DNA of 64,000 nt from Holosporaceae bacterium UBA7879 (GCA_002500565.1 DLRV01000011.1:42019-106018); one strand, 5' to 3'; positions 57,126-64,000 are shown, counted from the first letter of the stretch. Notes: a model not told the origin generated them from the sequence alone. Program-made: numbers and translations.

Positions 57126-57141
57126 CCCCGCTTGCGCGGGG
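57126..57141 (-). terminator. rho-independent terminator of the tssE-to-OMP operon
   Basis: CCCCGCTTGCGCGGGG hairpin preceded on plus by A7 (T-run on minus); 36 bp after OMP gene stop. Confidence 0.65.
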
Positions 57142-57176
57142 CCAAAATGAACAAATAATTGTTAACTCTAATCAAA

Positions 57177-57926
57177 TTAGAATTTGTAACCAACACCAAC
57201 GCTAACAGCCCAGCTGCTATTCACTTTTTGCGTAGTATCAAACCTTGCATTAGCAAAGTTTTGTAGGGCTAATCTTTGATTAACAGGCTTTTTAGCATTC
57301 AAACGAACCATGCGTGATACTTCTCCACGTAGAACCCAATTCTGAGCCTCACCAAGGAAATAATCCGCACCTAAACCAAGAACAAAAACATTTGGCTTAA
57401 CTTTTGATGAAGTTACTTGTTGAGCCTGGTTTACATCATTGATAGCTGTTGACTTAAAGTCATACTGTTCTTTTTGGTATCCAACCTTACCAAAAACAGC
57501 TAAGTCTTCACGGCATTTATAGCCAACTCTAACATTCAACCCGTAGGCATGTTTAAATTTCATTTCAACAGTTTGCCTGAAGTTGTCAGGAACACCGTTT
57601 CTTGTTTCAGTTCCACTCTGTTTAGCATTACCGAGCGCATAGAAAAGTTCGGGCGCAACAATCCAAGGACTTTTGTCACTTAGCAAATACCACCCAGCTG
57701 CAAGTCGTGGCTCTACATAAGACTTATTTGCTTTTATTGTATATCTTGCTAATGAATCATTATTTCCAGCATCAATAACGCCAACATCATTCGTTGTTTC
57801 AACTTTAGAAATTGCTCCTATCAAATGAAGGTAAGGCCCACTCTCAAAAGCAAATGCAGATGTTGCTGATAAAGCAGCAGCCCCAGCAAAAAATAAATTT
57901 AGTTTTTTCATAGATTTTCTCTCCAA
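57177..57926 (-). CDS. outer-membrane beta-barrel protein (OmpW/OmpA-like)
   Basis: 249 aa; signal peptide (LNLFFAGAAALSATSAFA), amphipathic beta strands, C-terminal VGVGYKF with terminal Phe. Confidence 0.6.
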   Translation of the reverse strand: MERKSMKKLNLFFAGAAALSATSAFAFESGPYLHLIGAISKVETTNDVGVIDAGNNDSLARYTIKANKSYVEPRLAAGWYLLSDKSPWIVAPELFYALGNAKQSGTETRNGVPDNFRQTVEMKFKHAYGLNVRVGYKCREDLAVFGKVGYQKEQYDFKSTAINDVNQAQQVTSSKVKPNVFVLGLGADYFLGEAQNWVLRGEVSRMVRLNAKKPVNQRLALQNFANARFDTTQKVNSSWAVSVGVGYKF

Positions 57927-57964
57927 GTTAGTTTTATGAATTTTACAGTATACTACCCCCTCCG

Positions 57965-60825: not shown

Positions 60826-61877
60826 TACACACTTAGGGTTTTATGGCTTTGGTACCAAGCGTCAACATCCGCTGGTTTATAAACAGCCAATGCTGTCAAA
60901 GTCCTTGACGTGGTATTCTTAGCTGGATTTTTCGCTTTCATCCAACTTGTCCATCCCAATTGCGATTTACCGCCTAGTCGCGTTTCTGTTGCCTCTAACG
61001 GATCGATTGTTAGCGTAACGTCAAAAGAGTGCTGTTTTTTCTTATAAAACCGTACCAAATCACATAGCATTGGGTATAGATCACCAGATTTGAGAAAGCG
61101 TAGGTATTGGCTCATTTTCAAGGGACCAAAACGGATATTAAATTTATTTTCTTGATCCCAAAACTTTGATCCTAATGCCGCCTCTTTGCCAAGCGCCGTA
61201 AAACGCGCTTTTACGCCCCCAATTTTTGTCCGTTGCGCCAGTGGAATTGCATTCCATTGACCTGTACAAAATTCAACTTTCGCCGGCATTTTAAAGAAAT
61301 CATTCAGAATCGTTCGAAGGCCATTCCCTGATCGGCACCAGTAAAGCCGTGCATAACTCATGATCGATCTTAACGGGACACTTTCTTCATAAGGATAAAA
61401 GTTAAAAGCCCCTGCTAAAGATTTTAAGAACGTGCCATAAGGAGATTGATCCGAATAGCCAGGGTTCAAACTAACCTTAAATTTTTTATGTGTTTCATAG
61501 AGTAGATGTGAAAGTCGGTTGTTATAAATAGATAAAAATGCATATAAAGAGCCATCTCCGTAAACAACATTTTCAATAATTTTATCTATGTAAACACGTG
61601 GCAAAGGACCGTTTAATACATCCAAACCAAATGAGTTAATCACCATTCGAAATTGATCGGGGTCAATATGTACCGAATGAATATCTGGCCCTAAAAGCTG
61701 CTGCTCTATGTTTGATTCAAACTTAAGCTTTGATTGAAAAGAAGTACTGCGATCAACGGGAATGACCAAACGTAAAAGCTTTACCGCCGCCAAAAACGAA
61801 TATTTATTTGGCTGAAGGGCTAAATCCTCATATACAGTTGGCTTGATTACACTTTTTCGACTGGCCATACTTTCCAT
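60822..61877 (-). CDS. tssG: type VI secretion baseplate subunit TssG
   Basis: 351 aa; N-terminal YSFLAAVKLLRL (FxFFQAVRLLE-type TssG signature); overlaps vgrG start by 4 bp and tssF end. Confidence 0.75.
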   Translation of the reverse strand: MESMASRKSVIKPTVYEDLALQPNKYSFLAAVKLLRLVIPVDRSTSFQSKLKFESNIEQQLLGPDIHSVHIDPDQFRMVINSFGLDVLNGPLPRVYIDKIIENVVYGDGSLYAFLSIYNNRLSHLLYETHKKFKVSLNPGYSDQSPYGTFLKSLAGAFNFYPYEESVPLRSIMSYARLYWCRSGNGLRTILNDFFKMPAKVEFCTGQWNAIPLAQRTKIGGVKARFTALGKEAALGSKFWDQENKFNIRFGPLKMSQYLRFLKSGDLYPMLCDLVRFYKKKQHSFDVTLTIDPLEATETRLGGKSQLGWTSWMKAKNPAKNTTSRTLTALAVYKPADVDAWYQSHKTLSVY

Positions 61878-63649
61878 ACAGTTTCTTCATCAGGTTTAAA
61901 AACACTAAGTTCAGTAAATGATACTGTGTAGCTAAAGTTCCTGAAATAATGATTCAAAACAGCAGAGAACAATAAAACATCTTTTTTGGCAAAGCTCTCT
62001 TCAGAAAAAGTTATTTTGTAAGAAGCACCATTTAAAAAACCACGCCAAGCATCCTTGCCAATCCGCCTTACGATATCATGCGTGCTAAATCGTGTTACAT
62101 CACTGCCATCCGTCATAAGTGCATGGGAAACCTGACGTTTAAACACGTTAATCGCTTCTTTAACAACTTTAACAGCCACATCATTATCTTTCGCGCCCAA
62201 AATCACATAATCGGTTGTTAGTTGTGAAATTAGTTGCCAATGGTAATTCCCTCCACCTGGGTTATAGATTGACGGTGTTGGCTGAGTAATCAAAGTAATA
62301 TCACTCACAGGTAAGGGTTGCTCCCCATAAAGTTTTGTACCAGGTCGTAATGAATGCGCCAGATCCCTGTTGGTGCAGTTGACTTTTGCAAAAATGGTTT
62401 CATGGATGGGGGTCTGTTTATTAAAGCTTAGATCAACAAAGCTAATTTCAGTTCTGGTGCCGGGCATGCCAAAAGCAGGATCTTGTTGAATATGGTAAAA
62501 GTATTTTTGCTGATCCGTTATATCGCCATGATCATACGAAAAATAAGGTGACAGCTTTTTAACGTCTTTCGATCCACGGATGGTTTGGTTAACTTCTTCA
62601 ACGGTGTGAATCTCCATATAGCGTTGCTTTTGCACATCTGCTGTCAGCGGATAAAACAACGATCTTTTATTGAAATCAATCGGATCTGTTAGATGAGAGA
62701 ATAAATTAATAACAGGTGTGCACCCAAGCTTAATGGTATCAGTATTAATTTGCAGATTTTTTTTCAATGCATCATAATTACTGGACATTGGAATCAGAAG
62801 CTCAACTTCATCATCGCAATCACTAAAATCTAGATTGTTTAAGCGAAAAAACATAAACTTCTGCGGCAAGGCAAAGTATTCTTGAATTAAGTTAAAGGAT
62901 GTAGGTGATTGCGGATACGTTGGCAAAACCATCTCATCTTCTGTAAATCCAACACGTTCAATGATTTCATCTCCACGGTAAATCCTATGTGTATTTGTCT
63001 GAGGATTGTAACTTGCAAAAGCAGTATTGGTCAGAAACAAACATTCAAATACCCAATTGGCAATAAAGTAATCTGCATCAATGTAAAAACACAATGAATC
63101 AATCTTATATTCTTTAAGTTTTTTTGCTTTGGTCTTTAGTTTAATTTTTAAAACATATGAATCAGAAGATAATGAAGAGTAAAAATCATAATTAGCGCCT
63201 GGCACAATCTGAGCATCTTCAATTTCAATGGGCCATAGCGTTAGATCGTAACTTGTTTTAAAGCGGCACGGGACTCCCTTGCTGGTTTGAACATACAGAT
63301 TACTGTTACGCTTAATGGTCTGACCCGTTGTGCTTTTTCCTTTGCTAGGATCAATGTGGAACTGCGCAATCGACATTGGCGGGATAGGCGCAACCAGCTG
63401 CGGATAAAGAATGCGCAGCATTGTCTGCGACATAACGGGAAATTGATCATCATACTTACGTTGCAGTGTACTGGTTAAAAATGCAAACGATTCAATCAGG
63501 CGTTCAATTTGTGGATCACTAGAGGATGTTGGCGTTAACCCAAGAGAACTTGCAACTTTGGGATGCTGTTTTGCAAACTCTTGACCACTCTTGCGTAAAT
63601 ACTGTAATTCACGCTCATAATAGGCCAACTGCTCTTTGTCAATTTTCAT
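61847..63649 (-). CDS. tssF: type VI secretion baseplate subunit TssF
   Basis: 600 aa; N-terminal YYERELQYLRKSGQEFAKQHPKVASSLGL...DPQIERLIESFAFLTSTLQRKYDDQFP matches conserved TssF N-terminus. Confidence 0.8.
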   Translation of the reverse strand: MKIDKEQLAYYERELQYLRKSGQEFAKQHPKVASSLGLTPTSSSDPQIERLIESFAFLTSTLQRKYDDQFPVMSQTMLRILYPQLVAPIPPMSIAQFHIDPSKGKSTTGQTIKRNSNLYVQTSKGVPCRFKTSYDLTLWPIEIEDAQIVPGANYDFYSSLSSDSYVLKIKLKTKAKKLKEYKIDSLCFYIDADYFIANWVFECLFLTNTAFASYNPQTNTHRIYRGDEIIERVGFTEDEMVLPTYPQSPTSFNLIQEYFALPQKFMFFRLNNLDFSDCDDEVELLIPMSSNYDALKKNLQINTDTIKLGCTPVINLFSHLTDPIDFNKRSLFYPLTADVQKQRYMEIHTVEEVNQTIRGSKDVKKLSPYFSYDHGDITDQQKYFYHIQQDPAFGMPGTRTEISFVDLSFNKQTPIHETIFAKVNCTNRDLAHSLRPGTKLYGEQPLPVSDITLITQPTPSIYNPGGGNYHWQLISQLTTDYVILGAKDNDVAVKVVKEAINVFKRQVSHALMTDGSDVTRFSTHDIVRRIGKDAWRGFLNGASYKITFSEESFAKKDVLLFSAVLNHYFRNFSYTVSFTELSVFKPDEETVWKVWPVEKV

Positions 63650-63767
63650 AGGATACCAGCTCTCCCTTTAATACACTCCAGCATACAATAGAGTCCAAAG
63701 TGAAACAATTTCAAAACGTTACAAATAGAGATAATGTTTATTTTTTGCCAGCATGGACCAGAAGGAT

Positions 63768-64000
63768 TTAACTTCGATTCGGACTATCAATCCCAACTGA
63801 ATAAGCGATCAGCTCACGTTTATCATTATGGTGAATCCAGCCAGTAAACAAGCAAGTCAATGTTTGGGTATTAATATTAAAGTCTTGAACTTCTAAGGTT
63901 TCTAATTCAAATCGAGGCTCAAATAGCCTGACCGAATTTTTGATATATCTCTGTAGTTTTTGCCAAGATAAGCGATTCATCGGATCGTAATAGGAAAAGT
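63768..64000 (-). CDS. tssE: type VI secretion baseplate protein TssE (gp25-like), 5' end beyond window
   Basis: C-terminal 70+ aa with gp25-like FEPRF motif (VRLFEPRFELETLEV); reading frame remains open to the window edge (…FSYYDPMNRLSW…). Confidence 0.6.
   Translation of the reverse strand, partial: FSYYDPMNRLSWQKLQRYIKNSVRLFEPRFELETLEVQDFNINTQTLTCLFTGWIHHNDKRELIAYSVGIDSPNRS

Follow-up and report, generated by a model that had tools for sequence, protein, structure and literature searches.

Reduced type VI secretion systems (T6SSs) are typical of the Holosporales (reviewed by Castelli and Petroni 2025), where they have been termed "non-standard" or "modified", and Holospora itself has no T6SS, having lost it. 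The marine diplonemid endosymbionts carry 2-4 tlc genes and a modified T6SS from which TssD and TssJ are reported missing; YwqK adjoins VgrG in all of them, and leucine-rich repeat (LRR) proteins are encoded nearby (George et al., 10.1101/719211). A T6SS has also been described in Ca. Bodocaedibacter, with a separate tssK-tssL-tssM-tssA cluster (PMC8163844), and T6SSs are rare among Rickettsiaceae. Here we describe a T6SS locus at positions 57126-64000, minus strand, of a 64,000-nt stretch (hereafter the window) of Holosporaceae bacterium UBA7879 (GCA_002500565.1 DLRV01000011.1:42019-106018). It is a real T6SS that looks functional, of a kind already described and with genes already annotated, and does not overturn current understanding. 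We consider it probable that it is a vertically inherited structural operon of the canonical T6SSi type, kept under strong purifying selection in a Holosporales-like host. Vertical inheritance is suggested because relatives have the operon at the same chromosomal site, its GC content matches that of the genome and its TssF falls in a clade sharing a tandem of two hcp genes (hcpA-hcpB).

A sequence-only reading of the window had named tssE (partial), tssF, tssG and vgrG on the minus strand, and curated profile hidden Markov models (HMMs) bear out all four at those positions (Table 1). TssF matches TIGR03359 (E 1.4e-145, 486 bits, cutoff 260) and PF05947 (E 2e-149), and in the PDB it finds the TssF of enteroaggregative Escherichia coli (EAEC; 6giy, E 4e-40). 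TssG matches TIGR03347 (E 1.1e-52, 179 bits, cutoff 143) and PF06996 (E 1.3e-55). VgrG (TIGR03361, E 2e-152) contains the Phage_GPD, Phage_base_V and Gp5 C-terminal domains, with an architecture of gp27-like and gp5 OB domains followed by a C-terminal beta-helix; past residue 615 there is no Pfam family match, so no C-terminal effector domain was detected. The TssE fragment scores weakly inside the window (PF04965 E 3e-4; TIGR03357 E 1.7e-3) because the gene is truncated by the window end. The full-length protein of 157 aa, read from an identical scaffold, reaches 56.2 bits with TIGR03357 (cutoff 53.2), so that TssE, TssF and TssG all score above the cutoffs of their models. NCBI already holds the TssF (MAP24001.1) and TssG (MAP24000.1) proteins so annotated, from a metagenome-assembled genome (MAG) labeled "Rickettsiales bacterium" (locus tags CMM87_), in which the T6SS proteins run from MAP23998 upward.

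For the rest of the apparatus, the sequence-only reading had left two options, genes beyond the window edge or an orphan baseplate-spike module. The window was extended with a Tara Oceans scaffold of 102 kb (L001), found through an exact TssF protein match, which is 100% identical across the shared 12,154 nt and runs 9.6 kb past base 64000. Past the edge it encodes, in order, the rest of tssE, hcpB (219 aa), hcpA (170 aa), tssC (489 aa) and tssB (180 aa). Upstream of tssB, a 400-bp gap separates the operon from housekeeping genes transcribed away from it, cmk and tsaB among them. TssB matches TIGR03358 (E 1e-52) and TssC matches TIGR03355 (E 5.7e-200). Against solved T6SS sheaths in the PDB, TssC gives E-values from 3.5e-192 to 7.6e-110 (5n8n, E 7.6e-149; VipB, E 9e-114), and against Francisella IglB 2.7e-65. 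The orphan-module option is excluded because sheath and tube genes are adjacent to tssE on the identical scaffold, and the expectation of further genes past the edge was the right one. The operon is a sheath-tube-baseplate-spike unit, complete for those parts.

Two other kinds of contractile structure were rejected. An extracellular contractile injection system or phage-tail reading (antifeeding prophage AFP, Photorhabdus virulence cassette PVC, Amoebophilus; T6SSiv), which would call for a phage-type sheath and tube, a gp6/gp7-like baseplate and a tape measure, is ruled out, since all the parts match T6SS-specific equivalog models; in a fold search with the HcpA model, tube proteins of contractile injection systems rank below the Hcp structures. 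A flank of phage-tail genes only (P2/T4 baseplate) is contradicted by the TssB/TssC sheath and Hcp genes. The profile matches place the machine in the canonical T6SSi type, not T6SSii.

The genes form a single co-oriented operon in the order tssB-tssC-hcpA-hcpB-tssE-tssF-tssG-vgrG-MORN(-OMP), of which the window carries the distal two-thirds. The sequence-only reading of a tightly packed minus-strand operon, running through a MORN gene and an outer-membrane protein (OMP) gene to a strong terminator, agrees with what we found: tssF overlaps tssG by 31 nt, tssG in turn overlaps or adjoins vgrG (window 60822-60825), the gap from vgrG to the MORN gene is 8 nt, and a hairpin (GGCCCCGC-GCAA-GCGGGGTT, then TTTTT) closes the operon 3' of the OMP gene. 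This hairpin is the sole strong terminator-like site across the 11-kb cluster. Scans for promoter consensus sequences were uninformative, with fewer matches than in shuffled sequence. The GC content of the locus is 38-44% and that of the window ~42%.

Table 1. Coordinates of the T6SS locus and of other features in the window (64,000 nt).
Feature	Position	Strand	Models and remarks
TssE C-terminal fragment, 77 codons, gp25-like baseplate wedge	63768-64000	minus	gene runs on past window end
TssF baseplate subunit, 600 aa	61847-63649	minus	TIGR03359, PF05947
TssG baseplate subunit, 351 aa	60822-61877	minus	TIGR03347, PF06996
VgrG/TssI spike, 699-701 aa	58720-60825	minus	TIGR03361, PF05954, PF04717, PF22178, PF06715
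MORN_2 / YwqK-family protein, 248 aa	57965-58711	minus	PF07661
Outer-membrane beta-barrel (OMP), 244-249 aa	57177-57926	minus	PF13505, PF01389; likely start 57911
Intrinsic-terminator-like hairpin	57143-57124	minus	8-bp stem, 6 GC pairs, GCAA loop, T-run
Block of OMP, chaB and 99-aa ORF, ~1.6 kb	56284-57926		
chaB	56589-56822		
Coiled-coil ORF, 99 aa	56284-56583		
969-aa protein	53263-56172		weak Fer4_20 and Pyr_redox_2 matches
Phage/GTA-like genes, scattered	22918-24141, 47856-49481, 21046-21555		
Orphan, 472 aa	44959-46377		sub-threshold F-box-like, BspA-type LRR_5
TLC ATP/ADP translocase (tlc)	29379-30914		PF03219
ORF of 1067 aa	25113-28316		no Pfam match

Profile comparisons and one structure model identify the two small genes that separate tssC from tssE as divergent Hcp homologs. 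Searched directly against the Pfam family T6SS_HCP, HcpA and HcpB each reach only E about 0.005, below the gathering score. Each was represented by an alignment with orthologs from related loci (alignments A2 and A3) and compared with an alignment of canonical Hcp, made from the hcp genes at the same position in related clusters, a representative of which scores E 3.5e-32 with PF05638. Both families match it in hhalign with 96% probability (E 4e-9 and 5.5e-9), and HMMs from A2 and A3 reciprocally match canonical hcp open reading frames (ORFs) in many loci. In the PDB, the HcpB family profile finds Hcp chains, that of P. aeruginosa Hcp1 (1y12) among them (E 0.002); the same sequence search with the HcpA profile found no Hcp. 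The HcpA family is very small, with 9 homologs in 5.8 billion proteins, three of the nine with PF05638. An AlphaFold2 (AF2) model of HcpA, built on a 10-sequence alignment (predicted local distance difference test, pLDDT, 61; predicted template modeling score, pTM, 0.56), was searched against the PDB with Foldseek: the top 21 matches are all Hcp structures and the top 25 all contain Hcp, alone or as a fusion partner (best E 6.5e-5). For HcpB, a single-sequence AF2 model was unusable (pLDDT 31). The hcpA-hcpB tandem is found in every same-clade relative with readable flanks (our loci L007, L087, L089, L091, L014, L026, L092 and L093). The tube protein reported "missing" in Holosporales T6SSs is here probably a pair of divergent tandem Hcp paralogs, and such pairs likely account for the missing tube of the literature.

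L091, a relative whose TssF is 96% identical, keeps all nine genes intact and in the same place on the chromosome. The ratio of nonsynonymous to synonymous substitution rates (dN/dS, pairwise Nei-Gojobori, window genome against L091), a rough measure at this distance, is 0.011 for tssC, 0.016 for hcpA, 0.018 for tssF, 0.024 for hcpB, 0.032 for tssB, 0.039 for vgrG, 0.055 for tssG, 0.059 for tssE and 0.124 for the MORN gene. For the flanking housekeeping genes the range is 0.02-0.22, and the T6SS genes are as low or lower. Such values indicate strong purifying selection and are incompatible with decay. Sheath, tube, wedge and spike are all encoded here by intact genes that are under selection. 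Relatives at 96% and 83% TssF identity carry the operon at the same site, between cmk on one side and the 969-aa gene, pgk and MatE on the other.

The relative at 83% TssF identity, GCA_002869105.1 (L087/L088, PKTP01000005.1), has tssB split into ORFs of 93 and 87 aa (6160-6706) and vgrG split into ORFs of 123 and 600 aa (12831-14959), and its NCBI record has no tssB or tssC gene called. These split ORFs may represent decay in some lineages or an assembly error. They could support the idea that the window's locus is itself a remnant, with genes still readable but a machine made non-functional during genome reduction, and so could the absence here of the ClpV, DUF4280 and PpkA/PppA of less reduced relatives (see below) and the loss of the T6SS in Holospora. 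However, all nine genes are full length against HMMs both in the window genome and in L091, the overlapping and tightly coupled ORFs have been kept, and neutral decay is incompatible with dN/dS values of 0.01-0.06. We find a decaying remnant very improbable.

The host can be approached through other genes of the window. The presence of tlc was confirmed by PF03219, and together with the T6SS models it upholds the view of the sequence-only reading that an alphaproteobacterium with tlc here carries a true T6SS locus. Beyond its own clade, NusA has its best named matches in Azospirillaceae, Stellaceae and Rhodospirillales (58-60% identity), which fits published bias-aware phylogenomics, where the Holosporales stand next to Azospirillaceae. 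Among the GTDB species-representative matches listed, the nearest TssF (67% identity) belongs to a MAG labeled "uncultured Holosporaceae bacterium". A neighbor-joining TssF tree, a kind of analysis that the sequence-only reading had put forward for the T6SS subtype and for horizontal acquisition, places the window in a 21-member clade with 100% support; besides that MAG, its members include the Holosporaceae-labeled complete chromosome CP060261 and further MAGs of alphaproteobacteria, and the Ca. Finniella group falls outside it. The tree groups the locus with Holosporaceae-labeled genomes. A synteny test of the taxonomy found no housekeeping genes shared between the window and the Holosporaceae-labeled loci. 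Taken together, these matches point to an uncultured marine tlc-positive alphaproteobacterium with Holosporales/Rhodospirillales-type affinity.

That the T6SS was instead recently acquired by a true Rickettsiales member, as in Ca. Sneabacter namystus, and would then be unusual for that order, is suggested by the name under which NCBI files the source MAG. NusA has none of its best named matches in Rickettsiales, the nearest listed TssF is that of the Holosporaceae-labeled MAG, and the locus is chromosomal, with genome-like GC and synteny maintained from 96% to 83% TssF identity, so that we regard this history as highly unlikely. The sequence-only reading had also considered T6SSs rare or unreported in Holosporales-type bacteria. 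This is at odds with the published work cited above, which reports them as typical of Holosporales, and the premise of rarity would stand only for a true Rickettsiales member, which the evidence does not favor.

Several observations weigh against a vertically inherited canonical operon in a Holosporales-like host. The placement of the host is based on MAG labels, a single-gene neighbor-joining tree and NusA best matches, not on phylogenomics, and the "Rickettsiales bacterium" label disagrees with it. The dS values are near saturation (about 0.5-1.4), which makes the dN/dS ratios rough, and the split tssB and vgrG ORFs of GCA_002869105.1 have to be counted here as well. The HcpA model is of medium confidence, with TM-scores to Hcp of 0.42-0.57, and a direct hhalign comparison of HcpA and HcpB gives 2.6% probability, that is, no detectable similarity, their link being made only via canonical Hcp profiles. 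In the 74 kb of sequence read (window and L001), HMMs found no homolog of TssA, TssK, TssL, TssM, ClpV or the PAAR-like DUF4280, and PAAR and TssJ families are not listed in the precomputed Pfam annotations of called genes, no dedicated model having been searched for these two. The completeness of the machine would thus follow from relatives in the literature and not from the sequence of this genome.

The HMMs for TssA, TssK, TssL, TssM and ClpV were built from canonical related loci and checked by Pfam on one of them (L058; PF05936, PF09850, PF14331). They also gave no match in the +/-10 kb flanks of same-clade relatives, except for ClpV in L014, L092 and, as a remnant, L089. A full ClpV of 886-888 aa lies between tssG and vgrG in L014 (12804-15464) and L092 (14585-17251). 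In L089, a 164-aa ClpV-N-like ORF (15358-15852) matches only the ClpV HMM (E 2e-11), and in L093 a glycosyltransferase (12860-14011) occupies the tssG-vgrG junction. In the window lineage tssG abuts vgrG, with nothing between. Free-living relatives have the order tssK-L-M-A-B-C-hcp-E-F-G-(clpV)-vgrG-MORN-DUF4280, with the DUF4280 gene after the MORN gene in 17 loci, and the window lineage retains only the central block of this order. Across the relatives, clpV, the PAAR-like DUF4280 gene and the PpkA/PppA regulators have been lost in steps. Directly upstream of tssB, two less reduced members of the clade, L092 (3424-7603) and L014 (4385-5849), encode a PpkA-like Ser/Thr kinase, a PP2C phosphatase and a VWA protein, a set resembling a regulatory module based on threonine phosphorylation; at this position the window lineage has cmk and tsaB.

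One could take the ten-gene cluster as complete, a minimal or non-canonical contractile system without TssJLM, TssK, TssA and ClpV, which might resemble contractile injection systems of the intracellular or extracellular kind in its action, or might rely on other anchors (such as the adjacent OMP) and housekeeping ClpB. The missing components of the 74 kb and of the relatives' flanks are consistent with this, as are the reductive series of ClpV from L014/L092 through L089 to the window clade, the words "non-standard" and "modified" used for Holosporales T6SSs, and the OMP gene, which is co-oriented and shares the terminator. On the other hand, in canonical systems TssE, TssF and TssG dock on the membrane complex through TssK, and these three proteins are highly conserved here. 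The closest relatives do without the OMP, so it is no essential anchor. Published Holosporales have a separate tssK-tssL-tssM-tssA cluster (PMC8163844), so that its absence from 74 kb is expected. A minimal system is, for these reasons, distinctly unlikely.

The sequence-only reading had included two cargo-like genes in the locus. Both genes exist, but the cargo role does not hold for either of them. Of 80 related loci, about 25 encode a homolog of the MORN_2 protein (PF07661, E 4.2e-15) directly after vgrG; these loci come from Acidobacteriota, Myxococcota, Nitrospinota and Alphaproteobacteria. The annotated order in the T6SS-b of P. phymatum is vgrG, YwqK-family protein, PAAR-like protein. 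Because the pairing with vgrG recurs across phyla and in the literature, we read MORN_2 as a conserved VgrG-associated spike accessory, not as lineage cargo. The literature names the YwqK/MORN protein an immunity protein, and a literature search for DUF4280 together with MORN found nothing. An adaptor or chaperone role would fit at least as well, since the gene is linked to vgrG and a PAAR-like gene across phyla without an obvious toxin.

The OMP matches PF13505 just above threshold (29.2 bits, cutoff 28.7) and PF01389 (E 1.6e-4). It has a Sec signal peptide (MKKLNLFFAGAAALSATSAFA, followed by FE) and ends in GYKF, with a terminal Phe. It has no counterpart at this site in L091 or L087, and no T6SS-adjacent homolog was found among the other related loci. 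We read it as a strain-specific passenger, a Sec-exported barrel and no conserved part of the T6SS. The OMP was considered as a TssJ substitute or as cargo, and both are ruled out by its absence from the closest relatives. The gene belongs to a block with chaB and a coiled-coil ORF (Table 1) that is not at the same site in L091 and L087, where the MORN gene is followed directly by a convergent gene of 962-975 aa; the block is a strain-level insertion or deletion. The window's own 969-aa gene is conserved in all close relatives, where it also converges on the T6SS operon.

If the locus is the canonical T6SSi operon that we consider probable, TssE, TssF and TssG together with VgrG would nucleate the baseplate, and HcpA and/or HcpB would polymerize as a tube inside the TssB/TssC sheath. 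The complex would dock via TssK onto a TssL/TssM membrane complex presumably encoded elsewhere, as TssA would also be, as in described Holosporales. Contraction could then drive VgrG and Hcp with effectors into eukaryotic host structures or rival bacteria. The MORN protein may aid the loading of the spike or guard against a cognate toxin. Sheath recycling without a cluster-encoded ClpV would depend on a ClpV from elsewhere or on housekeeping ClpB. A bolder version is a streamlined T6SS in which the two Hcp proteins, as ancient and strongly conserved paralogs, form the tube (as a heteromer, or as one tube protein and one adaptor or carrier), with no ClpV, PAAR or TssJ and possibly no TssK, TssL and TssM; the "missing tube" would be an annotation artefact, and MORN_2 a spike adaptor, not an immunity protein. 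We hold this version to be unlikely as a whole.

Elsewhere, the window also encodes NusA, IF-2 and many orphan proteins. Scattered phage- or gene transfer agent (GTA)-like genes comprise a portal (PF04860), a fused prohead protease and major capsid protein (PF04586 and PF05065, E 9e-75) and a phage lysozyme. They resemble the dispersed GTA genes that reportedly occur in protist endosymbionts. The 472-aa orphan, with its F-box-like and LRR_5 matches (E 0.002 each), is a candidate eukaryote-like effector. Pfam gives no significant match for most of the window's other large ORFs (835, 552, 700, 1067, 494, 725 and 343 aa). The 1067-aa ORF differs in composition (GC 0.53 vs about 0.42; AT skew -0.33) and may encode a repetitive surface or effector protein; on another contig the called gene is shorter, 805 aa at the contig end.

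Compared with canonical T6SSi clusters (EAEC Sci-1, P. aeruginosa H1, V. cholerae), the locus shares TssB, TssC, TssE, TssF, TssG, VgrG and Hcp and the gene order tssB-tssC-hcp-tssE-tssF-tssG-(clpV)-vgrG. It differs in having no clpV, tssA, tssK, tssL, tssM or FHA/PpkA genes in or near the cluster, and two highly divergent Hcp paralogs in place of one canonical Hcp. The same vgrG-MORN_2 pair and core order are found in free-living relatives (Acidobacteriota, Myxococcota, Nitrospinota, Azospirillum) and in the T6SS-b of Paraburkholderia phymatum. In the free-living clusters tssB is directly preceded by tssK-L-M-A, clpV separates tssG from vgrG, and DUF4280 comes after MORN; none of these genes is present here. 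The T6SSii of the Francisella pathogenicity island (FPI) likewise belongs to an intracellular bacterium and has a divergent Hcp-like tube protein. Francisella has no dedicated ClpV and uses ClpB. Its sheath is far more distant from the window's (IglB, E 2.7e-65, vs 1e-110 to 1e-192 for T6SSi sheaths), and the window's TssF and TssG are canonical.

The closest described systems are those of the Holosporales endosymbionts (Ca. Cytomitobacter and Ca. Nesciobacter, George et al. 2019/2020; Ca. Bodocaedibacter vickermanii, Midha et al. 2021). They share with the window the T6SSi-type core of TssB, TssC, TssE, TssF, TssG and VgrG, tlc and host dependence, a YwqK/MORN_2 gene next to vgrG, an Hcp missed by routine annotation, tssK, tssL, tssM and tssA unlinked to the sheath and baseplate genes (here over 74 kb), and orphan and LRR-type putative effectors nearby. 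TssJ and PAAR are likewise missing, here from the Pfam annotations of the sequence read, where no dedicated search was made. The differences concern mainly the arrangement. In the endosymbionts the core is split over four or more loci ([tssG-F], [tssB-C-hcp], [tssK-L-M-A], [ywqK-vgrG]), whereas here it is contiguous from tssB to MORN, as also in the same-clade relatives, and of the four groups only tssK-L-M-A is unlinked. The MORN gene is upstream of vgrG there and downstream here, and the two tandem Hcp paralogs are found only on the side of the window. The organism also differs from the described endosymbionts in coming from a planktonic-metagenome (Tara Oceans) lineage with ~42% GC, for which diplonemids are a candidate host. 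With it, the tlc-positive Holosporales-like bacteria with a retained T6SS gain a marine lineage from planktonic metagenomes, which supports the view of this system as the main host-interaction device of the group. Set beside the dispersed loci of the described Holosporales, the contiguous operon looks like an ancestral arrangement that predates their fragmentation.

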